Assembly: GCA_016929235.1 (NCBI GenBank)
Contig: JAFGJD010000010.1
Coordinates: 1 to 47,234, forward strand
Reading direction: 5' to 3'
From: Candidatus Babeliales bacterium
GTDB taxonomy: Bacteria > Babelota > Babeliae > Babelales > JABCYS01
Length of the DNA stretch: 47,234 bases
Positions 140 to 47,234 of the stretch are shown one piece after another; position 1 is the stretch's first letter, and every line of letters begins with the position of its first letter. The translations under genes were made by a program, and so were the position numbers. The notes beneath the pieces are model-generated. The model saw nothing but the letters and a program-made list of their open reading frames with translations, was not told the origin of the DNA and did no database searches.

Positions 140-790
140 ATGAAACGATTTCAGTACAACAAACTATGCCGAGATAAAACACTCGATAGGTTAAAGGCTC
201 AAAACTGTATCCCAAAATACAAAATACTATCAGGTAAAGAATATTTTTGGGAACTCAAGCTTAAGCTTAGAGAAGAATCAGAAGAAGTTATCGAAGCACA
301 AACAAAAGATGAACTCATAAAAGAACTCGCTGATGTGAAAGAAGTATATGAAGCTATTTTATCGGAAACCGATACTTCTGAAAACTCGATAGAGAGGTAT
401 AGACAAGAAAAGACTGTTGAACGTGGCACCTTTAAATCTTTTATATATAGCGAATACGAAATATCATCACAAGAAGAGTATCTTGAGAGAATCTTTGATA
501 TGCTTGTAGAAAAATCAGAAGACGTTATCGAAGTAGAATCAAACAAATTTTCCAAAGACATCCTCATAGAAGAACTCGCTGAAGTAAAAGAAATATACGA
601 AGCTATTTTATCGGAAAACAACGTTTCAGAAAACTCAATCGAGAAATATCGACAAGAAAAAATTGCTGAACGAGGTGCATTTAAATCAAGAATTTATATA
701 GAATATGCAGACATGCCACCATCGGCAGCAATGTATGGCTACTGTTTAAAATGGAAAGATAAATATCCCGAACTGCCAATCGATAAATAA
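140..790 (+). CDS. MazG-like / all-alpha NTP pyrophosphohydrolase (COG4997-type) with an internally duplicated core
   Basis: N-terminal YNKLCRD motif, KLREESEEV...KELADVKEV acidic helices and EKxxERGxF motif; the core occurs twice. Confidence 0.75.
   Translation: MKRFQYNKLCRDKTLDRLKAQNCIPKYKILSGKEYFWELKLKLREESEEVIEAQTKDELIKELADVKEVYEAILSETDTSENSIERYRQEKTVERGTFKSFIYSEYEISSQEEYLERIFDMLVEKSEDVIEVESNKFSKDILIEELAEVKEIYEAILSENNVSENSIEKYRQEKIAERGAFKSRIYIEYADMPPSAAMYGYCLKWKDKYPELPIDK
271..707 (+). repeat. Imperfect ~190-200 bp direct repeat inside the MazG-like gene (approx. 271-458 and 508-707)
   Basis: agaactcgctgatgtgaaagaagtatatgaagctattttatcggaaa vs agaactcgctgaagtaaaagaaatatacgaagctattttatcggaaa; protein YEAILSE..SENSIE.YRQEK in both copies. 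Confidence 0.9.
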
Positions 791-2939: not shown

Positions 2940-3320
2940 TTATTCTGAAACATGAGCACGGGATGACCACGCCCAAGCTGAGAGCGCAACTCCAAAAATG
3001 ATAATGGTCCCGCCCACAAACCGCTTCCAGCGGCTTGGTGTTACTTGTGACTCATCAAGAGCTGCTAGCTCTTCTTCGCTGCGTGCCCTCTTTGCACAGA
3101 GCGCACAGACTAACGCTGTCTCAAAGCCATTCTGGAAACAACACCTGCAGACCTTATGCCCACATCCCAAGGGAACCATCACAGAACCATCAGAAACACA
3201 TGAACCGCAGATGCTGCAGCGATGTGATTGTTCATACATTTTTTCTTCAAACGATACGGGCGAATCGGCAACAAGGCTACAACTTGTCAGAGCCACAATA
3301 AGGAGAAAACGTTTCTGCAT
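2940..3320 (-). CDS. C3HC4 RING-finger protein with signal peptide and C-terminal membrane anchor
   Basis: CSIC-x14-CGH-x2-CRCC-x10-CALC matches the RING-HC spacing; N-term MQKRFLLIVALTSCSLVA; C-term hydrophobic FVGGTIIIFGVALSAWAW. Confidence 0.8.
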   Translation of the reverse strand: MQKRFLLIVALTSCSLVADSPVSFEEKMYEQSHRCSICGSCVSDGSVMVPLGCGHKVCRCCFQNGFETALVCALCAKRARSEEELAALDESQVTPSRWKRFVGGTIIIFGVALSAWAWSSRAHVSE

Positions 3321-9558: not shown

Positions 9559-10227
9559 TTAGAGTGCTACATTGCCCTGATGCATGTAGTTGAATGCTTC
9601 TGTGTACAGGGGCTTGTTAACCATCTCGAGCATGGTCAAGAACGTTTGTAACAGTCGTTGTTGTTTGGCAAGCAAATAGGTATCAATCAGTTTAGTAACA
9701 TGTACCATAAGTACTGATGTAATACCTGGTTTTTCTTTGGACCAGTTTTGAATCAGTTCTTGATGCACGGTAGAAAACTTGCTTACAGAATCGGTGCCAT
9801 CGACTTTTTGCAGCAACCATGACACCAATTCAAAGTGATGGTTCTCCATGAGCAGACGCATCAGTCGTTCGGTTGCATGTATTAATCTTGGTTCATTCTG
9901 ACCAGCGCTATAGATCTCAAGCATACGCTCAACCGCTTCTTTATCGACAGGTTCCAACATGACTAAATGTTCATACACAGCGATTGCTTCATTCATGCGA
10001 CCTTGCTTCTGGTACAGAAGTGCAGCGTCAACGTAATGATCAAATGCAGTAACATCTTGAAACGAAAGAAGGATATCTCCCTGCAACTGTTCTACAAATG
10101 CTTTATCATCAAGAGAATGAGCAAGAAGACGGTACATAGCAAGAGCTCGCTCCTTTTCTCCCCGCGATACGAACTCAGCTAATTTGAACCATGCGACTGT
10201 ATATTTTTCAGACAAGAGTTGCTTCAT
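9559..10227 (-). CDS. Hypothetical all-helical (TPR-like) protein
   Basis: 222-aa ORF with AGGAG RBS; TPR-like segments ERALAMYRLL and AALLYQKQGRMNEAIAVYEHL. Confidence 0.65.
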   Translation of the reverse strand: MKQLLSEKYTVAWFKLAEFVSRGEKERALAMYRLLAHSLDDKAFVEQLQGDILLSFQDVTAFDHYVDAALLYQKQGRMNEAIAVYEHLVMLEPVDKEAVERMLEIYSAGQNEPRLIHATERLMRLLMENHHFELVSWLLQKVDGTDSVSKFSTVHQELIQNWSKEKPGITSVLMVHVTKLIDTYLLAKQQRLLQTFLTMLEMVNKPLYTEAFNYMHQGNVAL

Positions 10228-10349
10228 TCTCTCCTGCTCCTCTTCACCTTCCAGACCGCAAAACGATATCAGAAGCTTCCTTTTTCAACCGCTACCGCCC
10301 TACCACCATAGTATAATCAGCCCAAGAAAAAAAGGGATAAGAAAAAAAA

Positions 10350-10424
10350 TGGTGCCGGGGGTCGGAATCGAACCAACGACACAGAGCTCTTCAGGCTCCT
10401 GCTCTACCACTGAGCTACCCCGGC
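10350..10424 (-). tRNA. tRNA-Phe(GAA)
   Basis: Cloverleaf GCCGGGG-TA-GCTCAGTGGTAGAGC-A-GGAGC-CTGAAGA-GCTCT...GTTCGATTC...CCCCGGC-ACCA, CCA encoded. Confidence 0.97.
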
Positions 10425-10499
10425 ACATGCGCAATATACGCAAAAAGATGGACTATAATGGTGCCTTTGTCAATAAAGACACCATACCCTCACGTCCCC

Positions 10500-11219
10500 T
10501 TATCTAGAGTTCCTAAGATGGTTGATTAGTTGAGGATAATAGACATCATCTGAAAGCCAGCGCCGACTAAACAAAAACCATGGAAAACATTGAAGCTTGA
10601 TGAGTAAATTGGTCCAAGTAAATCCATGATAATCTCTGTGAGGCTCCCCAAATGCCTTAGCTTCAACTTTCTTCATCCAGCTAATCATATCATGCGTATT
10701 ATCAAGCACCGCTGCAGTCTCGGCAAAGAGCTTGCGACGTCGATAGCGAAAATATCCAGGAACAGCCGCACGAGAAATCGCAAATTTTGCCAAATCATTA
10801 CGACCTGGAGTCACTGCAAGTATAAAAATTTTTGACATGATTCCCGATAAAAAACCTATTAACCACACCTTGCCGAACCCAATACCCTTGATCGATGCAA
10901 TTAAAAGGTAACCAAATAGCGCACGCTTTTCTCGGTCATTGAACATCTTTATAAATTGTTCATGAACATCAACTCTTATGGCATGCTTATAAGACACAAC
11001 ACGTATACCGAGCGGACCAAGGCAATTCGTTCCCGTGTAAATAGTAAGGTCAATAGATCGATCATCAAATCCAAGTTCATTCCTGGTAGTCATAAAAAGG
11101 GCCAAAAGTTGATCTCGAGTCGTATCCACTGCTTCCGTACGCACTTCTACCTTCGCCAAAAGGACCGGGGAGAATATATATGTCGTAAGAACTACCAATG
11201 CCAACATGCTTTTTTTCAT
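10500..11219 (-). CDS. M48/HtpX-like membrane pseudopeptidase (no HExxH), signal peptide
   Basis: VHEQFIKMFNDREKRALFGYLL aligns with VSKYFFTKLPIPLQRFLIGHEL of the HExxH paralog at 33368; LFAETAAVLDNTHDMISWMKKV aligns with ADRMAAERLCNAQDGIAFIKIV; AAGGA RBS before ATG 11219. Confidence 0.55.
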   Translation of the reverse strand: MKKSMLALVVLTTYIFSPVLLAKVEVRTEAVDTTRDQLLALFMTTRNELGFDDRSIDLTIYTGTNCLGPLGIRVVSYKHAIRVDVHEQFIKMFNDREKRALFGYLLIASIKGIGFGKVWLIGFLSGIMSKIFILAVTPGRNDLAKFAISRAAVPGYFRYRRRKLFAETAAVLDNTHDMISWMKKVEAKAFGEPHRDYHGFTWTNLLIKLQCFPWFLFSRRWLSDDVYYPQLINHLRNSR

Positions 11220-11303
11220 ACTCAGATCCTTCACGGCTTGGAGAAAACAACTTAAGGTTGAGATACTACCTATAGAACAAAAATAATCAACTATTACACA
11301 GCT

Positions 11304-11900
11304 TTATTGAAGCAAATATGAAGCACAGACACCACATTCTCTGTTTCCACGCGCAAAGCAATCATCACAAATAAAGTGAGGGTAACGCTCCATATCTTGG
11401 GGCGTTCTTCCCTCAACCCACATCCGCCGCACCTGATTCCACTGAGCATTTTGTGGACATTCACACCAGTGCATTCCACCACGCTCAAAATGCACTGCGC
11501 AATACGGACAACGCTCACTGATTGCGTGGGTAAATGTTTTACCCTGTTGATGGCCACCTTTCGCGGTTATGGTTGTTGTTAGTCTAGGATGGCGACGAGG
11601 CTGTCCTGTAGACATTGCCTGGGGATAAACTTGAGCCACAGTCCCTTCACCACGCCCCCCTCTAGTAACCGCTGATGATTCATCAGCAACCATAAGCAAG
11701 TTCTCACGCTTTCTCCATAAGGCTGCTGCAGCAATACCCAATCCCGTCACGATGGTACCCAGCGTAGCTAGACGATATGATGAACGGCCATGGTTCTCCG
11801 TTGCATATCGTTCTTGATTCTGAGTTGTAATATCGCTATGTGCATCTAGTCCTGCACATGACATGAAACACAAAAGAATTCCTAGATAGTGTTTATACAT
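11304..11900 (-). CDS. Membrane-anchored protein with a C-terminal variant RING finger
   Basis: Signal-like N-term, TM LATLGTIVTGLGIAAAALW followed by RKR, then CPYC-x11-CEC-x26-H-x2-CDDC-x7-CGVC. Confidence 0.65.
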   Translation of the reverse strand: MYKHYLGILLCFMSCAGLDAHSDITTQNQERYATENHGRSSYRLATLGTIVTGLGIAAAALWRKRENLLMVADESSAVTRGGRGEGTVAQVYPQAMSTGQPRRHPRLTTTITAKGGHQQGKTFTHAISERCPYCAVHFERGGMHWCECPQNAQWNQVRRMWVEGRTPQDMERYPHFICDDCFARGNRECGVCASYLLQ

Positions 11901-11909
11901 GATTCATTC

Positions 11910-12611
11910 CTATTCACTATGTATTGTTGATTCTGGGTGTAGGTACTTGTACGAACTTTGTAGTGATTGTGCTCGTTGCGTCCATGAAGGCATTCGCCCA
12001 TAAAGCCCCGATAAAAGACGCGTCAAGAGCCAAGATTGATTTTTCCCTTCTTCCGCTAAAATTGCTCTTCTTGTTAGGTACGCCAAGTATGCAGGGACAT
12101 CTTGAATCTCCGCTGCGATTCTATAATCTCCATAACGAACCCTTGCTCGATTCATTGCACACACCAGTAGCGGCCACACCACAAACAAGAATTTTTTCTT
12201 TAAGCCATACCAATGTAAAAGTGGCAACACTAACAGCCCGCCTACTACAGACATCGTTGTTGATTGTCGAAGTTGTGTAAGCGCCAGCACAAGACATGTC
12301 CACTGTTCCTGAACACTATAGAGGTCCAATACAGAGGGGTTGACGACAAGCTTACTAGATCCAATCATGAAAAAGGGTTCATGTGGATCATGCCAACGTG
12401 CGCTTAACGCTGGAGATACATGCTCAAACTCTAGGTATTCAATATTGTGCTTCGTACACACATCTGCGACAAGATCACACACTTCCTGTGTAAGAGGCTC
12501 TTTATCACTGGAAAGCTCTATGATTATTTTTGAGGAAAAGAGATAGCTCGTGGCGTACACTCCAGAAGAATAAAGCAGTATGAAACTAATGATCTTTATA
12601 GCATATCTCAC
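11910..12611 (-). CDS. M48/HtpX-like membrane pseudopeptidase (no HExxH), signal peptide
   Basis: EPLTQEVCDLVADVCTK vs EKLTSEAEDLVTDVAQK; LVCAMNRARVRYGDYRIA vs LVCAYVSRSSEYKADRMA; GRMPSWTQRAQSL vs SHPTTRERIENL; GTG start. Confidence 0.7.
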   Translation of the reverse strand: MRYAIKIISFILLYSSGVYATSYLFSSKIIIELSSDKEPLTQEVCDLVADVCTKHNIEYLEFEHVSPALSARWHDPHEPFFMIGSSKLVVNPSVLDLYSVQEQWTCLVLALTQLRQSTTMSVVGGLLVLPLLHWYGLKKKFLFVVWPLLVCAMNRARVRYGDYRIAAEIQDVPAYLAYLTRRAILAEEGKNQSWLLTRLLSGLYGRMPSWTQRAQSLQSSYKYLHPESTIHSE

Positions 12612-12615
12612 AAAC

Positions 12616-13818
12616 CTACACCCCTTCTCTACAGAATGGACATTGGTGACGCGCTGCTATGGCGGGAGCACAGGTGTGACAGACAACATGGGCATCGCCG
12701 CCTTGTTCTGGCCTGTGTATTACATGGAAATCGCTTGCGTTATCATACGTGTTCGCACAAAGAATACACTCCAGAGTAGTACCTTCTCCTCGTAGTCTCT
12801 GAAAGTCAGCCTCTGCCAAAACTTGAAAGCCATGATCGGTTCTTCGTGGAGCCGCTACCGTATCTCTCTCGGTGGAAATCATCCCCTCGAATATTCTTGC
12901 AATAGGATCTTGCGCTTCGCGGTTCTGCCTACCCACATCATCTTGCTCAGCCCTCCTGATAAGATCCTGAGCATCATGAAACTCTACGCCTCTTCGTGTT
13001 AATTCACCTAAAATTTCTGCTAGTCTATTACCTTCGTTATCCAGATCGGGATGTAAAATCAACTTTCTAATATCTCGCCTACTCATATTTACCGCTTGAT
13101 ATACTTGCTCTAATCCTTGCATTGTACGAATCCGACGCGTTGCCCGATCCTGCGCTTGTGTCAAACGTACCTGTTCTGCTTCAGAAAGCTGTGCAGGCCC
13201 AGCCGGCAGTACAGGTGCTTGTGCTGCAATGTCCTGTTCAGCCGCCGCTTCTAATGTATGCATGAAAATGGCCATCAAAAACTCATTCGGTTGCCCTTCT
13301 AATACGACACGATCGGCTCTTACCCTAGCACCAGCTAATGCACGCCCAAACAGCTCCAAGTCACGCCATGCCGACGGTAACGCATCTTCCGGCTCAAATT
13401 GCTGCATCGCTAGTTCATCTGACAAATCTGTATCTTCTATATCTGATGGACCTGATTCACTGTCCGCTGCTCGTTCACCTCCTGATCCTGGGGCTACACG
13501 AGAAGCTGGAGCCAGAAGCCTATCTTGATGCCGCTCACTATCTTGTCTTACCCGCGTACTATCGCATCTTTTAGACATTAATGAGCATATACTCAAAACA
13601 CCACCTATAAGGAGAATATCAGTTAATCCCTCACGACATGCCATTACCCAACGCAACAATTTCCAATTATTCTGCACCCCAACATCAGATACTTGCGCAG
13701 TAGCGGCAGCTTCCTGAAGCACTACGATATCTTGTTTAGACACAACGTCCCTGGCTGCTGCGCAAGCAATCCCTAAAGTCGCGAGCACAAAGAAAATAAA
13801 ACGAGACACGAAAGTCAT
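12616..13818 (-). CDS. Membrane-anchored protein with a C-terminal C2H2C4 (MDM2-like) RING finger
   Basis: Signal peptide, hydrophobic ILLIGGVLSICSLM, acidic/low-complexity linker, CILC-x13-H-x8-H-x2-CHTC-x9-CPFCR at the extreme C-terminus. Confidence 0.78.
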   Translation of the reverse strand: MTFVSRFIFFVLATLGIACAAARDVVSKQDIVVLQEAAATAQVSDVGVQNNWKLLRWVMACREGLTDILLIGGVLSICSLMSKRCDSTRVRQDSERHQDRLLAPASRVAPGSGGERAADSESGPSDIEDTDLSDELAMQQFEPEDALPSAWRDLELFGRALAGARVRADRVVLEGQPNEFLMAIFMHTLEAAAEQDIAAQAPVLPAGPAQLSEAEQVRLTQAQDRATRRIRTMQGLEQVYQAVNMSRRDIRKLILHPDLDNEGNRLAEILGELTRRGVEFHDAQDLIRRAEQDDVGRQNREAQDPIARIFEGMISTERDTVAAPRRTDHGFQVLAEADFQRLRGEGTTLECILCANTYDNASDFHVIHRPEQGGDAHVVCHTCAPAIAARHQCPFCREGV

Positions 13819-13866
13819 ATAACAACCACCCTGATGATTTACGCCAAAAAAATAAGACTTTTGCCC

Positions 13867-13896
13867 AGTATAAAGGAAAAATCGCCATTCCGGAAA
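13867..13896 (-). promoter_or_regulatory. Candidate sigma70 promoter of the RING/pseudopeptidase cluster
   Basis: TATACT -10 (13872-13867) about 50 bp upstream of ATG 13818; weak -35 (TTCCGG/TTTCCG). Confidence 0.35.
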
Positions 13897-14257
13897 TACG
13901 AAACTGACATTAGACTACGAACCTCGCAAGCTCCCCCTACTACCCTTCTTGATGCAAGGACTGGTAAGAGAACGTTGCAATGACTCAACAATATCATCAA
14001 GCGGCGGACTAATGTGGTATAAACGCCATATCCGCCTAGGCTAGACGTTCATCATGTGCCACAGAGCACATAACATCTGAAAATATCCCAAGGGACAAAA
14101 TCATTAACAGGAAAATCATACTACGACTTTCAACAACAAATTTTACGAGCAAATCCATTATACAAGGGGAAAGCAACGATTGCTAACAGTAGGATCCTCT
14201 GATACGATAAACGACATTCTGGCATCCGACGACCACCCTTAATACTATGGAAAACTT

Positions 14258-15292
14258 ATGGCGTCTTTAAAGCATGATATAGAAACAACACACAAGGAGT
14301 TTTCGAGAGCCCTTGATCAAGCAACCACACTAGAAGCGCTTGAACAAATCCGTATCACCTTTTTGGGCCGGAATGGATCAATCGCAAATATCATGGCCAT
14401 CTTCAAGCAGCTTCCCATCGAAGAGAAGCGCGCCTACGGCCCGCTACTACAAGAGCTTAAGAAAAAGACTCAAGAACTTTTTGACGCCAAGAAGATCACC
14501 CTAGAATCACAAGCGCATGCATATGAGGAAAAGCTTACACAGCAATTCGATGTAACCGCATACAAATCAGAGCCATCAGCAGGAACACTACATCCGTATT
14601 CCAGTATTCTCGAAGAAATCGAAAACGTTTTTATCTCAATGGGGTTCACGGTTACCGAAGGTCCCGAAGTAGAAACTGATTATCGAAACTTTGAAGCACT
14701 CAACATCCCGAAAGATCATCCAGCTCGCGATATGCAAGATACATTCTGGATCGATGTACCTGGACTACTAATGCGTACACATACATCTACAGTTCAAATA
14801 AAAACAATGGAATCGCAGCAGCCACCGATTGCTATCCTTGCATCGGGACGCGTGTATCGACACGAAGCAACTGATGCATCACACGACTATATGTTTGTAC
14901 AAACAGAAGGTCTTGTCGTTGATAAAAACATCTCAGTAGCGAACTTGTTTGCAACCACAGAAACATTCTTACAAGCAATCTTTAGAAACAAAAGCATCAA
15001 GACTCGTGTGCGGCCAGGATACTTTCCATTCGTAGAACCAGGGATTGAAATTGATATGTCCTGCCCATTCTGCACAACCGGATGTTCCGTCTGTAAAAAA
15101 ACGACTTGGATCGAAGCAGTTGGCGCAGGATTAGTACATCCCAATGTATTGCGTATGAGTGGTATTGATCCTGATGTGTACTCTGGATTTGCATTTGGAT
15201 TCGGAACTATTCGACTTACTATGTTACGACATGGCATCAATGACATTCGATTACTTCATTCCAACAAGCTCGATTTCTTACGCCAGTTTTGA
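14258..15292 (+). CDS. pheS: Phenylalanine--tRNA ligase alpha subunit
   Basis: NFEALNIPKDHPARDMQDTF, MRTHTS, GRVYR, YFPFVEP, GFAFGFG. Confidence 0.97.
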   Translation: MASLKHDIETTHKEFSRALDQATTLEALEQIRITFLGRNGSIANIMAIFKQLPIEEKRAYGPLLQELKKKTQELFDAKKITLESQAHAYEEKLTQQFDVTAYKSEPSAGTLHPYSSILEEIENVFISMGFTVTEGPEVETDYRNFEALNIPKDHPARDMQDTFWIDVPGLLMRTHTSTVQIKTMESQQPPIAILASGRVYRHEATDASHDYMFVQTEGLVVDKNISVANLFATTETFLQAIFRNKSIKTRVRPGYFPFVEPGIEIDMSCPFCTTGCSVCKKTTWIEAVGAGLVHPNVLRMSGIDPDVYSGFAFGFGTIRLTMLRHGINDIRLLHSNKLDFLRQF

Positions 15293-16418: not shown

Positions 16419-16682
16419 ATGAAGTACGGGAAATGCTTGAGTCTAGGACTCGTTATTACCTTTATTAGCGGTATAATTGGATGCCCAACCTGTGTTGGTC
16501 TCATTGATCCAGAAGCTCCCGAGCTCTTCAGCCAAGAATTCTATGAAACGCACTCAAGAACAGTGGTTTCCTTAATACAGAATAAGCTGCTAGCCAAAGA
16601 AGGAGAGTGGGATGAAAGCACAGAAGAAGCATCTTTTGATGACAGTGATGCTCACGGCGATCATAATACAACCAAGGATTAA
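16419..16682 (+). CDS. Small hypothetical protein with N-terminal hydrophobic segment, CPTC motif and acidic tail
   Basis: 87-aa ORF with G-rich RBS region; LSLGLVITFISGIIGCPTC. Confidence 0.55.
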   Translation: MKYGKCLSLGLVITFISGIIGCPTCVGLIDPEAPELFSQEFYETHSRTVVSLIQNKLLAKEGEWDESTEEASFDDSDAHGDHNTTKD

Positions 16683-17013
16683 TGGTGCTATTGGCTGTAT
16701 CGATACAAGTTTCCATACCAAAAAAGTTGCCAAGAACTATTACGAGCAGCTTGAACCAAGCTTACGTTCTGGTGTAACAGTTTTAGAAAATCTTGATGCA
16801 TATCCAACCGACTTTAAAGAACCACACCCAGTCTGGTGCACCTGTCCATGTGAACAGTACAAAAAAACATCCAAATCGGGACGCTGCACCAAGTGTCTAC
16901 ATTTTGGCAGAATCGATCGCACATCTCTTCAGAACAACAAAGAGGAAAGCTCTCTACATTTTCCACTTTTATCTGCAATCGTTAAACGAAGAGAAATACA
17001 ACAAAAGCATTAA
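16612..17013 (+). CDS. Hypothetical exported Cys-rich protein (CxCxC...CxxCxH)
   Basis: AGGAG RBS 6 nt before ATG, signal-like N-term, WCTCPC...GRCTKCLH. Confidence 0.6.
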   Translation: MKAQKKHLLMTVMLTAIIIQPRINGAIGCIDTSFHTKKVAKNYYEQLEPSLRSGVTVLENLDAYPTDFKEPHPVWCTCPCEQYKKTSKSGRCTKCLHFGRIDRTSLQNNKEESSLHFPLLSAIVKRREIQQKH

Positions 17014-26104: not shown

Positions 26105-27214
26105 TTATCTCACCATATCCGACCCCCTCAGTGCAATCATTACCTGTAGAGGAACCCTACTTGCGGCGGCATCACCCCCCCCATCATCACCTTCGATGTC
26201 TCTATTGTGAGCACTTAGACTTTCGCGATATCTATCCAAATAATGCAGACCAACTCTCCAAGCAATCCAGCGCGGATATGTAACTAGTATGCGAGTCCCA
26301 GGATTCTTAAATGACTGTTCTCCTAGTGGAGCATTCGTCCAACTTGGAGGTAAATTAGTAACAATATCATCAACATCCCAGGAAACTTTGGCCTTATAGA
26401 TATTTACAAACCTTGCCAAAGCTCGCACGCCCATATGTTCATCAAATTCAGTCTTTGCAAAACGATTAAATGGCCTAGGGGCACCAAAGGTCACAACCTT
26501 CACTGGATATCCTGGAACTTTACGTTGACCAGGAAAATAATGTTCGTAAAGTTGAGCGGCAAACAATGTTGCTATCGCCCCGCCTAAGCTATGACCTGTA
26601 AGAACTAATACATTTTGATGAGGTTTATATGCCAATTTTGCAAGAATTGCTAAAACGTCGCGCCGACATGACAGAGCAGCCTTCATGAACCCCCTGTGCA
26701 AGCGAGGCTCGCCCTTTGTAGGTTCCCAAAATTTCCTCATGTCTAAAGTTTCAGGTGATTCGGGAAAGTAGTTTTTAATTCCTTTTCTATCAAACTCCAG
26801 ATCGGTAAAAACCGACGGGTTTGTGATACTCGAAAAATCGGTTCCCTTAAAAGCTACAACAAACTGCCCATTCTTATATGCTACAATACCACAATGATTT
26901 TTTTTCAGGTCCCACGGTACTCCTTTTTCGTTACCCACTGCAATCCCAAATGGCACCACAGTATCCCAATAGGGTTGAAACCCTTTATTCATTATTGCTG
27001 ACAACTTTCCCAGTGGCATTCCGATCTCTTCCTTGTCGTCTGGTAATGCCGCATAGCTCGCTTCGCATGCATTCAACAAAGTTTGTCTCCACCAATAAAA
27101 ACCCTGCTCATTTTTCTGATTAAGAAGAGCTATGGCATCACCTTCACATGCCTTCACAGCAATACCAGCGCATATGAACCACAAGCACAAAAATCGCAGG
27201 AAATACTTACACAT
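26105..27214 (-). CDS. Class 3 (fungal-type) lipase / phospholipase A1, predicted exported
   Basis: VVAFKGT oxyanion region, LHRGF, LTGHSLGGAIA nucleophile, TFGAPR, DDIVTNLP (Asp), LHYLDRY (His); AAGGAG RBS and signal-like N-term. Confidence 0.85.
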   Translation of the reverse strand: MCKYFLRFLCLWFICAGIAVKACEGDAIALLNQKNEQGFYWWRQTLLNACEASYAALPDDKEEIGMPLGKLSAIMNKGFQPYWDTVVPFGIAVGNEKGVPWDLKKNHCGIVAYKNGQFVVAFKGTDFSSITNPSVFTDLEFDRKGIKNYFPESPETLDMRKFWEPTKGEPRLHRGFMKAALSCRRDVLAILAKLAYKPHQNVLVLTGHSLGGAIATLFAAQLYEHYFPGQRKVPGYPVKVVTFGAPRPFNRFAKTEFDEHMGVRALARFVNIYKAKVSWDVDDIVTNLPPSWTNAPLGEQSFKNPGTRILVTYPRWIAWRVGLHYLDRYRESLSAHNRDIEGDDGGGDAAASRVPLQVMIALRGSDMVR

Positions 27215-27296
27215 AAAAACTCCTTTTGTGTTTAGAATCTTATTGGGGGCATGATAAATAGAAAAAAGACACTGTTCAATAGCCCAGTAAGCAGAC

Positions 27297-27327
27297 AATA
27301 AAAGAACCCGGCAGATTTGCCGGATTC
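27297..27327 (-). terminator. Intrinsic terminator downstream of the Fic gene
   Basis: GAATCCGGCA-AATC-TGCCGGGTTC stem followed by TTTTATT. Confidence 0.7.
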
Positions 27328-27386
27328 CTGCATTAATCTTTGATGGATTGACTCAATTAGATTGCATAGTTTTTGTAAAGCTTAAG

Positions 27387-28046
27387 CTACTTCCTTTTTT
27401 GATTGAGGAGAAAACCTTCTAGAAAATCTACAAACGATCTTGGGGCATCTTTATATCCGACATACATGAGTTGACCATCGTCTAAGCTATTATCATATCC
27501 AGCTCTATGTATTTCGATATATTTTTCGAATTGCTCATAGCTCAGGTTCTTGTAACCATGGTCATGTAAAACCCATAAAGCAAGCACTCTTGCCACTCGA
27601 CCATTACCATCATCAAAAGGATGTATTTTCACAAACCCATAGTGTAAATTTGCAGCCCTCTCAATAGCTGAAGCTCCTTGATGATAGTGAACTAGTAACG
27701 CTTCCACTTCTCCTTCTATGCAATAACACTCACTATCCGGCGGCAAAAATCTTACAGTACGCGAGTTACAGATCCTGGGCGCCCCACGCCCTTGTCTGTA
27801 GCCCACCTCCTTGTCAAGTCCCAAAACTGTCGCGTGTAGTTTGTGTATAGTTATGTGATCCATAGGTTGCCCCCTCACTTTATGATAAGCAGCACCACAC
27901 TTTTCTTTACGGTTTCCCATATCTCCTCTAAAACTTCTATCAAGATAAATAACGTGGCTATGGGCCTCTGTCATAGATCGCAATCTCGTTCCAGCAGCTG
28001 TCAAACTAGCAGAATTAAGCTGACGCGCTTTATACCAGCTACTCAT
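27387..28046 (-). CDS. Fic domain protein (putative AMP transferase)
   Basis: Canonical HPFDDGNGRVAR motif; IHKLHA and GYRQ segments. Confidence 0.88.
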   Translation of the reverse strand: MSSWYKARQLNSASLTAAGTRLRSMTEAHSHVIYLDRSFRGDMGNRKEKCGAAYHKVRGQPMDHITIHKLHATVLGLDKEVGYRQGRGAPRICNSRTVRFLPPDSECYCIEGEVEALLVHYHQGASAIERAANLHYGFVKIHPFDDGNGRVARVLALWVLHDHGYKNLSYEQFEKYIEIHRAGYDNSLDDGQLMYVGYKDAPRSFVDFLEGFLLNQKRK

Positions 28047-28094
28047 AGTACACTCGAAGGATTATTTTCATCATTGAGAATTGTACATGACAAA

Positions 28095-28114
28095 TATCAG
28101 CAAAGACGCTGATA
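28095..28114 (-). terminator. Hairpin immediately after the MutS-like gene stop
   Basis: TATCAGC-GTCTTT-GCTGATA followed by TTTGT. Confidence 0.45.
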
Positions 28115-28118
28115 AATT

Positions 28119-30221
28119 TTAATGGCTAAGAACACCTTCAGCTTCTGCAAGGAACGAATCATCAAAACCTTCTTCCTTCAGAATCTTAAACGTTATGGTC
28201 TGATCCGATATGCCACGCTCAAGCTTATAAGGGTACTGAATTTTTTCTGATCCATCCTCAAAAGCCGAAACTTTATAGTTTGAAAACAAGTTTGTTTCCA
28301 GCTCTAGAGCAGGAACTCGTGCAAAGTGTGTTGCTGTCAGACATATGTTACCAGGATTCTTTCCAAGCAATGAAATCATACTATACGCAGCTGCTTCACC
28401 TTCTTTAGGAGTAGTACCATTAAATAGCTCATCAACCGCCGTAAGTGAAAATTCATGGGGAGCAAGATCGTCAGTCATGTTTAAAAGTTCTCGTGCTCGA
28501 AGAACTCCGGCCTTAAAATGAGAATTTCCTGCCGCAATATCGTCCGTAATATTCAGGTATGTCATAATTTTAGCAAAGGGCGTAAACGTTAGGGATCTTG
28601 ATGGTGCAATTCCCAAACTTTGTGCAAGAATAATGTTTACTAAAATCCCACGCATTATCGTAGATTTACCTGCTGCATTAGGGCCGGTGATAATTATATT
28701 TTGAGGAGAATTATACCTCAGGCCTAATGCTAATGAATTTGAGATAGCTGTATCTGGGTTAATTGATGGATTCCAAAAATCTTTGATCTCTATCGATGGA
28801 GTTTCAACATTTCCCTCTACGTATGTGGGAAAGCAAAATGTAACATGTTTTTTTTCATATTCCTTATAGAGGCGTGCAATAGACATATGCATATCAAGTT
28901 CACCTGCAACCAAAGCCAAATCAACCAACATCTCTTTTACGTCATGCATCAATCGATATGCAGAAAAGATTCTTCCTTTATACGAAAAAAAAGAAGCCTT
29001 CCCCTCAAATGTCCTGGTTTCTAGCAGTCTCAACAAGTGAACAAAATCTTCTGACTTTTCTACAAGCGCCTTCATTTTTGCTTCTATACAGCTGAGCGAT
29101 GGCATAGAAGCAAATAAAATATTATTTTCTCTTGCCAGTTTAATCATATCTCTAACAGAATTCACATAGATTGCCGTATATATCAGCTTCTCTTGCATAA
29201 CCTTGTCTATCAAAATGCTTTCGCTCACATTTTTCAACATCCACCACAAATTCAGGGAATTTTTCGTGCCACTCATTGCACTGATAGAACCCTTAGCAAA
29301 AACATTATTATATCTTAGGCCCTGCAAGATCAAATAAAGGCTCCCTATAATGCTAAATTTTGAAAGCCCCGAGAGATTATATTGTTCATTCCATTTTTTG
29401 AATCTATCAATGGAATTGTTTTTTGTAAGATATGAAGCAACAACTAATGGAATTGATATAGCTCCCATTGCTGTGAACACCATTCCAGCCAAACTTGCGC
29501 CAATATTCATCTCATTATTGATTTCTATTGCTAATTCGTTTTTGTTAAGCCAAGAAGATACATACTTCAACCAAGAAAAATGCCGCTCAAATGGAAGTCT
29601 TATAAGGCAATGTGAAACAATCCCTTTGAACATGCTATCGTTCCAAAATGACATAAAAATATTTTCAGGAATTTCCAATCTTCTTAAACGGCTATCAAGT
29701 TCATTAAAAAGTAATTCATTAGCTATAAGTTCTTTTGTAATCCGCTGCTGTTTGCCTAGGTTGTGGGAGGAAGAAACGGGCTGAATAATCTTACGATACA
29801 ACATAAGCCTACCAAGTTCAGTCGAAGTACGATCTACTTGCGCAGCAAGATAATGGGCAGCATCCGATCTCGGGCCACACAAAATCTCAAGATCTTGCCA
29901 CGTCTTTCTATCTAGAATGGCGCTTAGTTCAATTGAATGAGTACGTTCAAACCCAGAAAGAAGAGATAGGGCAAATTGCCTTTTTGAAAGAGTAGAAGGA
30001 GTAAGTTGAAACCGAAAGTTATCTTTTAGAACTTCGTGAAATTCCTTTTCATTATTAATCAGTGCTCCAAGGGTATCACTTGCTGATGACGCAGAAGCCT
30101 TCACCCCAGTAACTGCCTTTAGGTTTTCTCTTCCTATTTCTTGATACAAATTGGCATGGATAACAGGATTAACCAAGATCAGGTCTAACAAAAAGATCAA
30201 CGCTAATGGTTGCTTAGGCAT
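28119..30221 (-). CDS. MutS-related ATPase (domain V type) with signal-like N-terminus and hydrophobic segments; not the mismatch-repair MutS1
   Basis: IITGPNAAGKST Walker A, ILAQSLGIAP, LTAVDELFNGT Walker B, ATHF, YKLERGIS; TWQDLEI and DRTSTELG domain III-like motifs; no domain I motif. Confidence 0.85.
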   Translation of the reverse strand: MPKQPLALIFLLDLILVNPVIHANLYQEIGRENLKAVTGVKASASSASDTLGALINNEKEFHEVLKDNFRFQLTPSTLSKRQFALSLLSGFERTHSIELSAILDRKTWQDLEILCGPRSDAAHYLAAQVDRTSTELGRLMLYRKIIQPVSSSHNLGKQQRITKELIANELLFNELDSRLRRLEIPENIFMSFWNDSMFKGIVSHCLIRLPFERHFSWLKYVSSWLNKNELAIEINNEMNIGASLAGMVFTAMGAISIPLVVASYLTKNNSIDRFKKWNEQYNLSGLSKFSIIGSLYLILQGLRYNNVFAKGSISAMSGTKNSLNLWWMLKNVSESILIDKVMQEKLIYTAIYVNSVRDMIKLARENNILFASMPSLSCIEAKMKALVEKSEDFVHLLRLLETRTFEGKASFFSYKGRIFSAYRLMHDVKEMLVDLALVAGELDMHMSIARLYKEYEKKHVTFCFPTYVEGNVETPSIEIKDFWNPSINPDTAISNSLALGLRYNSPQNIIITGPNAAGKSTIMRGILVNIILAQSLGIAPSRSLTFTPFAKIMTYLNITDDIAAGNSHFKAGVLRARELLNMTDDLAPHEFSLTAVDELFNGTTPKEGEAAAYSMISLLGKNPGNICLTATHFARVPALELETNLFSNYKVSAFEDGSEKIQYPYKLERGISDQTITFKILKEEGFDDSFLAEAEGVLSH

Positions 30222-31834: not shown

Positions 31835-32548
31835 TTAGGCCCCCACTGGACACATCCCTTCCACAATTGCCTGGGCCTCTCTAATCTCGTTAATCTCCTG
31901 GGCAATTTCTGGATTGTATTCTAGGTAGGGCATAAGAGCTTCTTGATATTTTTTGTAATATTCAATGGCTCCATCATAGACTCCAAGCCGTCTCACCGTA
32001 GCACATAGCAACTTTTTAAAAATGTTTCGGTTAACACGGTTCACGATCACTGATTTTGTTAATAGCGCAACAAGTGCGCCAACTATGCCACTGGTAAAAC
32101 AAAGCAATATGTTATTATCCTTAAAAAGGCCACTTTTTATTACACCAATACCGGAGAGAATGCCTGCAACAACCTGTGTCGCAAACAATCCTATGATCAA
32201 CTTTTTAGCATCATACGCCACACACTGCATGAGCATTCCTATCGCAAATCGCTGCCCTTCGCGACTCAGGGAATCGAACCAGTCGGGATTGATAAATACG
32301 TAATAGGAGCCAGGAATAAAAGCAATCGTATAAAATCGCGGATTGATATGGCAGACCTCCTCGGTAGGAATTCGCACCTCCAACTGCACATTATTAACAC
32401 CCAATGTTTCTGCTACTTCATTTATTATTGTAAGGTACTCAGCAGGAACGGGGCCCCCAGCAAATTTTTCGCATTCTTGATTAATAGTCCCCATCAGAGA
32501 AATATTCTGTAACATGACAGCGATAATCATGGGATATAGACGGCTCAT
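31835..32548 (-). CDS. M48/HtpX-like membrane pseudopeptidase (HExxH replaced by MLMQC)
   Basis: INQECEKF...INEVAETLGVNNVQ and QRFAIGMLMQCVAYDAKKL align with the upstream paralog IDQGVEKF...VTDVAQKMGVESVQ and QRFLIGHELAHIKQHDAKK; ATGA overlap with that paralog. Confidence 0.72.
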   Translation of the reverse strand: MSRLYPMIIAVMLQNISLMGTINQECEKFAGGPVPAEYLTIINEVAETLGVNNVQLEVRIPTEEVCHINPRFYTIAFIPGSYYVFINPDWFDSLSREGQRFAIGMLMQCVAYDAKKLIIGLFATQVVAGILSGIGVIKSGLFKDNNILLCFTSGIVGALVALLTKSVIVNRVNRNIFKKLLCATVRRLGVYDGAIEYYKKYQEALMPYLEYNPEIAQEINEIREAQAIVEGMCPVGA

Positions 32549-33368
32549 GAAACCTCATCTTCTTTGCAAACTGTTCTTAAATTTTCAATGCGTTCTCGTG
32601 TCGTCGGATGACTCAAAAACAATCTTCGTAGTTTTGAAAATGATTCAGGATTTTTCTGGCCGAGGTGAGAATCCTCTACCAGAAGATGTACTATCTTGAT
32701 AAAGGCTATGCCATCTTGGGCATTACATAATCTTTCAGCAGCCATACGGTCTGCCTTGTATTCCGATGAACGGCTAACGTAGGCGCAAACAAGACGGCCT
32801 ATGACAAATGACACTAAAGACAGTAATGGGGTAATAATCCTCAGCATTATTGGATTAATGATATGTGGTTCCCTCCTAAATCGTGCATAAAAGATTCCTC
32901 CACTTAGAAGAGGAATTCCTATAGAAAGACACTCCAACAGTAGCTTTTTTTTGCATCATGCTGCTTGATGTGAGCCAATTCATGGCCAATGAGAAATCTT
33001 TGCAAAGGTATGGGTAATTTTGTAAAAAAATATTTGCTCACAAGGACATAAGCATCTTGCATTGCCACAGCATTGTACAGCCCAAATGTTTGGAGTCCTC
33101 GCAAATTCAAGTAACGAAACTGAACAGACTCGACACCCATCTTCTGAGCCACATCAGTTACAAGATCCTCAGCTTCCGAAGTCAGTTTTTCAGTGCCAAA
33201 TTTCTCAACTCCCTGATCGATAATCTTTTGATAACACCTAGTTGCACCATCAACCAATCTCTCCAATGCACTCAGTTTCGATTGATGTCCCTGTGACGCA
33301 CCCCCTGAAAGAAGCGATTGCCGCAAAATCAGTGCGCAAAGACAAACACAAAAACTAAAACGCCTCAT
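32545..33368 (-). pseudogene. M48/HtpX family Zn metallopeptidase split by a single-base frameshift at an A8 run (32945-32952)
   Basis: 5' part has YNAVA and GHELAH; 3' part has SRSSEYKAD and LFLSHPTTRERI; adding one A gives a continuous 274-aa protein. Confidence 0.85.
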
Positions 33369-42591: not shown

Positions 42592-45500
42592 TTATGTCAT
42601 CAGGACCGCCCCACCAGAAAGTTGAGTCATGCGGGCACTAATGCGACTATTAACTTCCACTAATTGTTGATCAAGCGACAAGCCAGCAAGATATGCATTC
42701 GCATAGGTCTGTGTTAATGAGAAGTACATCTTCCATGACCATAAGCTCAATAACGAATATCGAATTGCTGAGTCACTGTTACCTACAAACGTTTCGTATC
42801 CTGCATCAACGAGCGACTGAAATTCTTCATTATCATCAAGCTCCGTCAATTCGATCCCATTGGTTCCTGTCACATATGATCTAAAGGCGGCAAATGCGGC
42901 TCCATCTTCAGTAGGCGGATCCAAGAGATCATCACCTTGCTGAATCAAAGCGGAATATTGTGTGGAATCGCCAACAAGACCCTCGAACATGCTCTTCGTG
43001 TAAAGGAAATACATCAACGCATCAAGAAGCGATACTTCAATCTCACTATACTTAGTCATCTGTTCTTGCGACATGGAAGCAGTACCTGTCATATAGTTGT
43101 TGTATAACTCAACTAACTGAACATAGGTTTTACCATCAATAACATCTGAGGCTTGTTTTGCGGCAATAAACGCAAGCATATTACGTGAAGCAACTTTGAA
43201 ATATGAACCGTACAATAACTGCGTCACACTTGTCATTTCAAGAGTCAAATCTCTACCGGCAAGGCTTCTGATGCCATTATCAATGAATGTTTGATAAATA
43301 TTTTGAGCTCCACCGTAGTACTGTCCTGCATATTCGTAAAACGCAGAAGTCGCCATACATGTATCACCACTTGTTTTGAAAACCTGTGCAATACTATCAA
43401 GTACAGCATTAGAATCCGATATGCTCCATGCATTGGATATACCTTGCCCGCTGTAATATTCAACGTAGTGTTGTCGTGCACTCATATAATCTTGGAACAC
43501 TTCATCGACAGCTGCAGAAAATAATTGTGTATCAGGAGTTCCAACAATAAATGATTTCATAGTTTCTGCCGCACCCGACCACATCTGCGCCATGATCATA
43601 TTCATATACAGCGCATCAGCCGCAAATAGACTTGTTCCAATAAAGTCTCCCTGCTGATGATCTTTTCCATTGAGAAATTCATACGCGCCAACATAGAACG
43701 TATACATATCAATGTATGCTGATCGAATCATATCAAAAAGTTCATATGTTCTATCATTGGCAAGTTGCAAGTTGGGCAAAGTCGTCTGTACATTTCCTGC
43801 TTCTGAAATGAGTGCAAACGCAATATCTTTGCCAACGTTCCATGCCATAGTATCATCTTGCCCAGGAACATAATTTCTTCCATTAAATGACACTAATTGT
43901 GTGCCAACTCTAAACAATTGGAGCGCCGCGACATAGTAACTTGCCGCACATATGGCACCGTTGTACGCAGGCTTAGCAGCAGAAATCATTTTATTCTGCT
44001 CGCGGATGGTTGGCTGTGCACCTTGTTGATCAAACCGCACTTGATATTCAGCAAATCCTCGGACCTCATCATAATAAGCCCGCGCCTCTTGTTCGATCAT
44101 ATCAACAATCGTTTCTTTGTCTGTATCGAGAGTATTGGTTCTTGTTGTTGAATCTGGGGTATAAGCATCTTCATACTCAATACCCTTATCAGCAAGTCGA
44201 TATGCTATTTCAGTGTACAATGCACAGGTTGCTGGATCACCATATGTTGGAACGCCTAAAGGAATAGATCGCACTTGATCACGAATAAAATACGTACGCG
44301 GCACATCAAATCTATTTGCAACATTCTTGGTGCCTTCAGTGTAGATCAGACCATATATCTGTGCCGCGGTCGCTAACGTTTCAGCCTTAAAATAGGCGCG
44401 CCGCAACGTTGTATCATTTGCTTTGTCATCTCGTCCTAACTGATGGTAGCCAACGCGAGCCGTAGCAAGATATGTAAACGCATCTTGATACTCTTTTTGT
44501 TCGAGCTTATAGATTCCCCATGCCTGATAAATATCGTATTGTTTCAGTTGTGCATCGGCAATTTCCTCATTTGTTTTGCCTAAAACAAGTTCATTGGTTT
44601 GTGGATACCGCTGCGTATAGTACACAATCAGGTGCTTCTGCCGATCAAGAGCTTCTTCATAGTTTTCCTGTGCAACAAGTTGATCAATAATCGATGTACT
44701 GAGATTGCTCGTAATGTATGTATTAATTTCATTGATTAGCTGTGCAATGACCGTCTCAAGATCTTGGGCCATAGCTGTATTGTTTTGCCGCTGATATACC
44801 TGTTTTAATTGGCTATACATAAGCACTGCACCAAGAAGAGGATAGTATTCTTGCGGTACATGTTGCTGATATGCATCAGCGTACTCGTGCAAAACATCAA
44901 GAACTTCGGTTTGTGCATCTTCATTTCCAGATTCAAGCGCCACTTGATACAAGTTCAGCGCTCTCTGCCATGCACTATTAGCAATGCTCTCATAGGTAGC
45001 ATCTGATGATTGAGACATCCAGTTTGTTTGTACTGCAGAAAGGTCTACCGCTGCTGCTTTTGCTTGGCGCGCAGCGTTCATAGTATCCACCATAGATTGA
45101 AGTACTGCTAGCTCTGCATCCATATCAACACCGTGTGAAGCAATAGATGAGTAATAATGAAGAGCAACCAGGATTTTATCAGATTCTCCCGACTCAATTA
45201 ATGGCTGGCATGTGTTACGATAGACATCAGCTATGTACTCATTCAATGCCCATTGGTATGTGATGGCAACATCGTTCATGAGGTAACCAGGATATAATGT
45301 CATATCACGAAGCAATTCAGGATCGGTCAGCACTAAATGATCGGCATTAGCACAGATCTGTCGTGCTTGCGTATACAACCGTTCTGCTTGTTGCAAACCG
45401 ACATCACTCGCTTGCGTTGCAAATGTGTCAGCTTGCTGTAATAGACCGTTTACTTTTGTAATGGTCGTAATCAGTTCGTGTGCATCAAATATGGCTTTTA

Positions 45501-47139: not shown

Positions 47140-47234
47140 AGCTTCACTCTCCAAACACGACAGATAGCCTGAGAACTACTCTAGTAGTGCAGGACCCCAG
47201 AAGGCAATAAAAAATCCAGGGTCCATATATATGA

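Follow-up and report, generated by a model that had tools for sequence, protein, structure and literature searches.

In a 47,234-nucleotide stretch of DNA from a Candidatus Babeliales bacterium (contig JAFGJD010000010.1 of assembly GCA_016929235.1; the whole stretch is called the window here), two genes for RING-finger proteins alternate with two genes for proteins of predicted M48 peptidase fold that have lost their zinc ligands. With moderate confidence, we interpret this four-gene block as a genome-specific island of exported, fast-evolving effector-like proteins lying between tRNA-Phe and pheS. The window is contig C1 of a genome of 808,977 bases in 10 contigs (completeness 99.27%), which encodes TLC ATP/ADP translocases and three secretins; the organism is probably a small intracellular parasite of protists of the Dependentiae/Babeliales. 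A signal-peptide heuristic is passed by 305 of the 753 called genes. In Chromulinavorax, 44% of the coding sequences carry a putative signal peptide, and its secreted proteinases include M48 (PMC6561590).

Architecture of the four-gene block

The block consists of four co-oriented minus-strand open reading frames (ORFs): RING_a (12616-13818, 400 aa), M48L_a (11910-12611, 233 aa), RING_b (11304-11900, 198 aa) and M48L_b (10500-11219, 239 aa from the ATG at 11219; the ORF is open to a GTG at 11234, giving 10500-11234 and 244 aa). Re-derivation from the ORFs reproduced the order, the orientation and the gaps of 4, 9 and 84 nt given by the original prediction, an earlier reading of this DNA. The downstream flank holds tRNA-Phe(GAA) (10350-10424, minus strand), which relatives retain between the TPR gene and pheS, and a conserved TPR-like gene (9559-10227, minus strand) that serves as a flank marker and occurs in 49 of 61 genomes. 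The upstream flank is marked by the divergent pheS (14258-15292, plus strand).

All four proteins pass the signal-peptide heuristic, as the original prediction had supposed from their N-termini, and one internal hydrophobic segment is present in each of RING_a and RING_b. None of the four has a match in Pfam or NCBIfam. Codon usage and third-position GC content of all four genes are native (codon score percentiles 14-74, n = 632 genes). Moreover, no long DNA repeat or attachment-like duplication was found in 10200-14300, and promoter-like sites (7 against 7.9 expected) and terminator-like sites (2 against 2.9) are at chance level.

Under independent placement within the set of 305 exported-type genes, the RING-M48-RING-M48 order would be expected about 1.3e-6 times per genome, and the chance of a single RING-M48 adjacency would be about 0.02. 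Because the alternating order is this improbable by chance, it must be put down to one adjacency that was then duplicated, to interleaving with an M48 pair, or to selection. Similarity between the two units was undetected (RING against RING, z = -0.2; partner against partner, z = 0.4). The description of a module occurring twice therefore holds by gene class only.

The RING proteins

RING_a has a signal-like N-terminus (residues 3-21), a hydrophobic segment (64-82), a long acidic and helical linker and a C-terminal RING variant at 12625-12777, with the pattern C-x2-C...H-x8-H-x2-C-x2-C...C-P-F-C-R. Eight candidate zinc ligands are present, of which the third is a His with an 8-residue loop insertion, where a Cys with a His 1-3 residues later is normal; this variant recurs in three related genomes (G002, G003 and G060). 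There is no Pfam RING match for RING_a. The model of its 53-aa domain (pLDDT 85.5) has RING domains as its best structural rows (Z 4.1-4.6), including gp78 (Z 4.3, rmsd 2.0, 44 aligned), the Z values being low with 53 residues and the model having used a RING alignment; Foldseek with this model gave no match at E ≤ 0.001. Collectively, the RING_a domain is predicted to have the RING fold. The residue directly after the last Cys of a RING is the linchpin position, and the C-P-F-C-R end of RING_a retains the cationic linchpin Arg. The role of the cationic linchpin in RING ubiquitin ligases (E3s) has been described, together with its variability among them (PMC12326332).

RING_b has a signal-like N-terminus, a hydrophobic segment (44-62) with a basic patch, and a degenerate C-terminal RING at 11319-11519. 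An insertion of about 27 aa follows the third ligand, and the domain ends in C-G-V-C-A, without the loop-2 Pro or the linchpin Arg. Because the linchpin is variable among RING E3s, RING_b may still be active. The candidate zinc-ligand pattern is retained in both proteins. The assignment of both Cys/His domains to the RING type is upheld, with RING_b being degenerate.

Homologue searches with the four block proteins were restricted to lengths near the query. No relative of RING_a was found among 1.84 billion representatives; the other members of its cluster were rejected as unrelated short peptides. RING_b has no homologue in a set of 5.8 billion proteins. The caveat that the window holds no gene for a ubiquitin-conjugating enzyme (E2) or ubiquitin extends to the whole genome, in which no match to either was found, the E2 search having no positive control (no match in any control genome). 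Any E3 activity of the block would consequently depend on host machinery.

The His-third-ligand variant is found in family f1 and in G060, at L086:5843-12129 (G003:C4), L087:5003-5677, L175:3937-4848 and L088:6423-7361. Three such genes cluster in G003, and one lies between clpB and tpiA-like genes in G002 and G003. Furthermore, L165:1419-5696 (G002:C21) holds an array of related signal-bearing proteins with a 'vvdLYxaxK' start, two of which end RING-like and alternate with RING-less paralogues.

The M48-fold partners

At the position of the HExxH motif, M48L_a reads LALTQ and M48L_b reads YLLIA. The position of the third-ligand Glu is occupied by Val in M48L_a and by Lys in M48L_b, as read from a family alignment at about 11-16% identity, and the C-terminal HP..R of M48L_a has become MP..R. 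By this alignment, all zinc ligands and the catalytic Glu are replaced in both proteins. When compared with 28 aligned M48-like proteins from the order, M48L_a matches 164 columns (E 0.0025) and M48L_b 22 columns. A resemblance of both partners to the M48 peptidase encoded at 33368, noted by eye in the original prediction, was recovered for M48L_a (local score z = 6.2; 0/300 shuffles reach the score) but not for M48L_b (z = -1.5; 298/300 shuffles reach it).

Neither partner reaches the Pfam cut-off for PF01435, and neither has any Pfam match at E ≤ 0.05. Based on structure models, the Atlas single-sequence predictions match M48/M56 clusters with TM 0.69 for M48L_a and TM 0.62 for M48L_b. For the AlphaFold model of M48L_b (pLDDT 72.8), the best eight structural rows are all M48, M56 or minigluzincins, and the matches include ZMPSTE24 (Z 9.5, rmsd 5.7, 180 aligned), BepA (Z 9.3, rmsd 3.1, 139 aligned), Ste24p (Z 8.5) and BlaR1 (Z 8.3). 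This model leans towards M48 because it was built on an M48 alignment, and Foldseek with it returned nothing at E ≤ 0.001. The elements expected of a gluzincin (helix, three strands, active-site helix, hydrophobic helices and third-ligand helix) are predicted in both partners. Collectively, alignments and models agree with the earlier claim and indicate that both partners are M48/M56 gluzincin-fold pseudopeptidases, the fold of M48L_b being assigned from structure models and the family alignment.

No homologue of M48L_a was found in the 60 relatives or in the 5.8-billion protein set. For M48L_b, that set holds a single homologue, P0003, with 57% identity over the full length, co-linear and gap-free; P0003 likewise lacks HExxH, its site reading YLLIA. 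M48L_b has no homologue in the 60 relatives, in metagenome contigs or in genome contigs, and no RING_b-like protein from the 1827-base contig of P0003 was among the matches. The four block proteins thus appear, from these searches, to be near-orphans. The branches of M48L_a and M48L_b are very long (3.1 and 3.2 changes per column). In FastTree, M48L_a adjoins a conserved subfamily of M48-like proteins without HExxH (dead M48s, described below), and in IQ-TREE (37 of 60 rows) M48L_b falls inside that clade. Neither of the two trees, nor a set of 200 bootstrap trees, joins the two partners, and a single clade is not rejected (p-AU 0.47).

Conservation of the gene classes and of their pairing

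We compared 60 relatives (61 genomes with our own), among which none is of the same genus, and searched 201 genomes of the order for dead M48s. PF01435 (HtpX included) matches in 58/61 genomes, with up to 18 matches each and often in tandem arrays. PF13920 matches in 33/60 relatives, and our own RING alignment, in which RING_b is included, in 40/61 genomes, partly by construction. Of 114 RING genes that are complete at the fetched loci of relatives, 104 encode a signal-like start; among these 104, a hydrophobic segment precedes the RING in 11 and follows it in 10. The linchpin position is Arg or Lys in 62/86 pattern-matched RINGs of relatives. Collectively, signal-peptide RING proteins and M48-fold proteins are two families expanded across the order.

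The RING survey covered 97 regions around RING matches, holding 116 RING genes, and left out three of the weakest RING-alignment matches (one in G060, two in G013) and the PF13920-only matches in G021, G038 and G055. Its neighbour figures, and those below, are counts and not statistical tests, because related genomes are not independent. The downstream gene is visible for 111 of the 116 RING genes; it is co-oriented in 76 cases, in 16 of which it is another RING. An M48 gene directly follows a RING gene in 1/111, in G031 (L194:5807-7592, G031:C24), and its HExxH is intact, so it is of the active type. By a rough estimate, about 0.3 such adjacencies would be expected by chance in this survey. 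In G031 the pair is on the other strand, with about 2.4 kb between it and the TPR gene that also flanks the block; it follows a carboxylase gene and has no tRNA-Phe alongside. None of the other 710 genes scored near RINGs stood out against four M48 profiles, and no dead M48 was recognised among 29 co-oriented RING neighbours of 170-330 aa read by eye. In our own genome, the M48 profile ranks M48L_a 10th and M48L_b 338th of 596 genes, so dead partners equally diverged beside the RINGs of relatives would escape detection.

The reverse survey comprised 92 M48-centred loci with 99 distinct M48-like genes, and is enriched for one dead M48 subfamily because the searches were seeded with it. In this enriched sample, 30/99 genes lack HExxH. 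The gene upstream of these 30 is an active M48 in 16 cases, a dead M48 in one and another gene in 12, with one unseen. A RING lies upstream of a dead M48 in 0/29 with a visible neighbour, and none lies on either side. Two genes with weak scores against the M48 profile (C8:4127-4918 and L122:6961-8022) were rejected as M48, since by eye they appear to encode a coiled-coil protein and a PrsA-like lipoprotein.

At the tRNA-Phe/pheS site, the block is absent in 3/3 same-family genomes, and RING or M48 genes were found at 0/43 other TPR-linked loci. At 25 of the 43, no more than 10 kb separates the TPR gene from pheS, and several carry other inserts. Partial profile matches occur at two TPR loci (L226 over 38 columns and L230 over 25 columns). 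The original prediction had proposed a ligase and substrate-receptor system resembling eukaryotic endoplasmic-reticulum-associated degradation (ERAD), and had named a survey for RING-M48 adjacency in related genomes as its touchstone. Within profile sensitivity this survey was negative, and a conserved system of that kind was not borne out (1/111 with an active M48, 0/29 dead M48s, 0/43 loci).

The genome has a third RING gene (2940-3320, minus strand), encoding 126 aa with a signal, a RING-HC domain and a C-terminal hydrophobic tail. It lies between rodA and ruvB on the opposite strand, is overlapped by an apparent N-terminal extension of the ruvB ORF, and has no M48-like neighbour. This gene and the third dead M48 of the genome (31835-32548) are not paired in RING-M48 fashion.

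An active/dead M48 pair in the window and across the order

The conserved partner of dead M48s is seen elsewhere in the window (31835-33368, minus strand). The HExxH M48 peptidase that the original prediction placed at 33368 does contain HELAH, but a frameshift in a run of eight A (A8, about 32945-32952) breaks its gene in two. The N-terminal piece (32919-33368, minus strand, 149 aa) carries HELAH and ends shortly after the frameshift; the C-terminal piece (32545-32937, minus strand, 130 aa) carries the third-ligand Glu helix and the HP..R motif in another frame. NCBI and Logan both list an identical truncated protein, which probably comes from the same sample; the frameshift is a candidate pseudogene lesion or slippage switch. 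HtpX (C3:84651-85523) is the only intact HExxH M48 found in the genome. The dead M48 (minus strand, 237 aa) reads MLMQC at the site and overlaps the active-type gene by 4 nt.

This dead M48 is related to one in G056 (33% over 84 aa, E 5e-11), and the two as a query over the 201 genomes gave matches in 23 at E ≤ 1e-4. At E ≤ 1e-9, the dead subfamily is present in 16 genomes of 8 families (own included), with a co-oriented HExxH M48 directly upstream in 15/16, the exception being G049; at E ≤ 1e-6, the pairing holds in 16/19. Nine pairs were measured, and their gaps from active to dead gene range from -29 to 36 nt. The dead subfamily is homologous to the active one (probability 98%, 187 columns), and most members of the dead subfamily share the motif PKKAGxQINPxN. 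In addition to the pair in the window, active/dead pairs lie at L241-L254 and L256. Collectively, the conserved module is an active M48 followed by a dead M48, a candidate heterodimer or built-in inhibitor or regulator.

Further M48-like genes without HExxH lie outside the main subfamily (L255, L257, L258, L259, L260, L265, L282, L286, L292, L294, L295, L069 and L076), which suggests that catalysis was lost more than once; a second conserved dead subfamily appears to be formed by L286, L292 and L294. Moreover, relatives have tandem arrays of 4-6 active signal-bearing M48 genes (L074:3710-9622, L075:5657-9558, L080:4252-7720 and L081:3120-7011).

Possible roles of the block

As an island of effector-like proteins, the block might work as follows. 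All four genes would be on one transcript, and their proteins would exit via Sec and type II secretion or vesicles. Export via Sec and type II secretion is plausible given the three secretins; type II is the sole secretion system described for Babela massiliensis (PMC4378268), and its genes belong to the core of TM6 (PMC4776705). RING_a would be anchored by its hydrophobic segment in the host or vacuole membrane, where it could recruit host E2~ubiquitin and work as a stand-alone E3, and RING_b would be a weak or non-catalytic RING. The dead M48s would be non-cutting binders serving as decoy, scaffold or regulator, and would descend from the M48 expansion of the order, where a dead copy normally goes together with an active M48. 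No obligate RING-M48 complex would be needed for the alternating order: a single adjacency could have been duplicated long ago, or RING genes could have become interleaved with an M48 pair.

Several points weigh against the island interpretation. The alternating order is far from chance (about 1.3e-6), and both units persisted until all detectable mutual similarity was lost, which suggests selection on the order. M48 profiles would miss dead partners in relatives as diverged as M48L_b, and the sample of relatives holds no genome of the same genus. In addition, G031 has a RING followed by an active M48 close to the same TPR gene. Finally, a protein with a signal and a single helix would normally keep its RING on the cytoplasmic side of the bacterium, where no E2 match is available.

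In the model of the original prediction, each RING and the dead M48 behind it would form a membrane E3 with its substrate receptor, directed against host membrane proteins and invented recently within the genus. In eukaryotic ERAD, Hrd1 or gp78 and the Derlins likewise join a membrane RING E3 to a membrane protease fold that has lost catalysis; the Derlins belong to the rhomboids, and Hrd1 crosses the membrane several times. In the block, the order is found twice, with gaps of 4 nt and about 70-84 nt, both partner types are hydrophobic and signal-bearing, RING_a retains E3 hallmarks, and the RING and active M48 of G031 could be a precursor state. We nevertheless regard this arrangement as unlikely: a dead M48 follows a RING in 0/29 cases and any M48 in 1/111, RING_b is degenerate, the third RING and third dead M48 of the genome are unpaired, and the two units are not detectably homologous. 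Similarly doubtful is a two-part membrane E3 that one operon would encode twice, the empty substrate cleft of a zinc-less M48 gripping host membrane proteins and passing them to a RING that borrows host E2. Such an E3 would be a bacterial Hrd1-Derlin counterpart built on an unrelated protease fold; it would go back to the active/dead M48 pairs found across the order, possibly by way of an arrangement like that in G031. The Hrd1-Derlin partnership is conserved, whereas the adjacency in the block was found in no other genome surveyed as a pair with a dead M48. A complex prediction for RING_b (21-198) and M48L_b (23-239) from a 2-row alignment scored 0.01 in a run whose controls did not fold, and it speaks neither for nor against a pair.

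Alternatively, all four proteins could stay in the bacterial inner membrane, the dead M48s serving envelope M48 proteases as regulatory or structural partners and the RINGs acting as cytoplasmic zinc-binding interaction domains with no ubiquitin role. Sec topology (signal, one helix and basic patch) would put the RING inside, the genome has no E2 or ubiquitin match, and where dead M48s have a conserved partner it is an active M48. Against this, 62/86 RINGs of relatives have the Arg/Lys linchpin expected for work with eukaryotic E2~ubiquitin, and the majority of the 104 RING proteins with a signal lack a helix ahead of the RING, which would lead to their export, so that we consider an inner-membrane role improbable for the block.

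The RINGs might instead act on the dead M48s themselves, an exported RING ubiquitylating the adjoining pseudopeptidase and timing its removal, as LubX does with SidH in Legionella. LubX is an E3 that destroys another effector, and among effector-effector pairs 6 are immediately adjacent, 2 nearby and 6 unlinked (PMC5199130); the gene order of the block is compatible with such a pair. Like the block, LubX and SidH combine a bacterial E3 mimic in a protist parasite with proximity to another exported protein; LubX is a U-box protein delivered via Dot/Icm, whereas the block RINGs are zinc RINGs with Sec-type signals (PMC5199130, PMC7830128). The pairing is not recurrent in relatives, RING_b is without E3 hallmarks and the dead M48s would have to act in the host, which makes this relationship quite unlikely. 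Finally, it is highly improbable that the block is a set of decaying leftover copies that have lost function and drift, since, despite the very long branches of the partners and the frameshifted active-type M48 of the genome, all four frames are intact with native codon use, P0003 retains M48L_b at full length, co-linear and without gaps at 57% identity, and both RINGs retain their candidate zinc-ligand pattern.

Comparison with known systems

One likeness to the proposed island lies in what is probably the same lineage. Babela massiliensis encodes both a RING protein and an F-box protein, together with deubiquitinases that are secreted and peptidase paralogues that are inactivated, and its genome contains effector-rich islands (PMC4378268). 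As in the block, signal-bearing eukaryote-like proteins are encoded in islands, a RING is a potential E3, and inactivated peptidase paralogues have neighbouring membrane proteins; the Babela massiliensis set also includes C19 deubiquitinases and a partly inactivated Ulp1-like family (PMC4378268). In contrast to the block, no RING-M48 linkage or dead M48 was found described in the available text of that article (PMC4378268), and the block RINGs differ from the Babela massiliensis RING in their hydrophobic segment and variant ligand pattern.

The block partners share their predicted fold with M48/M56 gluzincins (HtpX, Ste24/ZMPSTE24, BepA, BlaR1 and minigluzincins). Unlike active members of this group, they have all zinc ligands and the catalytic Glu replaced, and they have no Pfam or NCBIfam match. 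In the M16 pair beta/alpha-MPP and the M41 pair FtsH/FtsHi, a dead homologue is kept with an active one, as in the M48 pair at 33368-31835 (PMC11266112); the block partners, in contrast, adjoin RINGs and not an active M48. The term 'M48' is absent from the available main text of that 2024 pseudopeptidase review (PMC11266112). In mostly open literature, we found no account of RING-M48 pairing or of dead M48s in Dependentiae, where supplements to the Babela and TM6 articles might list these families, nor of the conserved active/dead M48 pair, nor of RING ubiquitin ligases specifically in Dependentiae. Within the literature searched, Dependentiae and M48 came together for Chromulinavorax only.

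Other features of the window

A 216-aa protein encoded at 140-790 (plus strand) consists of two internally repeated halves, which we take to resemble MazG/HAM1-like nucleotide pyrophosphohydrolases; it has no Pfam match above cut-off. The product of the gene at 16612-17013 (plus strand) is signal-bearing, 133 aa long and without a Pfam match; it contains a Cys/His cluster (HPVWCTCPC...CTKCLH). A signal-bearing lipase (class 3), a Fic protein and a signal-bearing MutS-like ATPase are clustered at 26105-30221 (minus strand). Finally, the gene at 42592-47154 (minus strand) encodes a protein of 1520 aa whose start is signal-like, whose N-terminus consists of Ser/Gly/Pro/Glu repeats and whose body is long and helical; no Pfam match lies above cut-off.

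Implications

The block, as an island in one genome, extends a known theme, that of protist parasites exporting ubiquitin-system mimics. A ligase-receptor complex, if true, would mean that an ERAD-like ligase had arisen by convergence. M48 proteins without zinc ligands occur commonly in the order (30/99 in the enriched sample). Their conserved pairing with an active M48, as a testable candidate heterodimer or built-in inhibitor, is a better lead than the block of RINGs and dead M48s. Collectively, the active/dead M48 pair and the order-wide class of signal-peptide RING proteins, including the His-insertion variant, matter more than the island itself.

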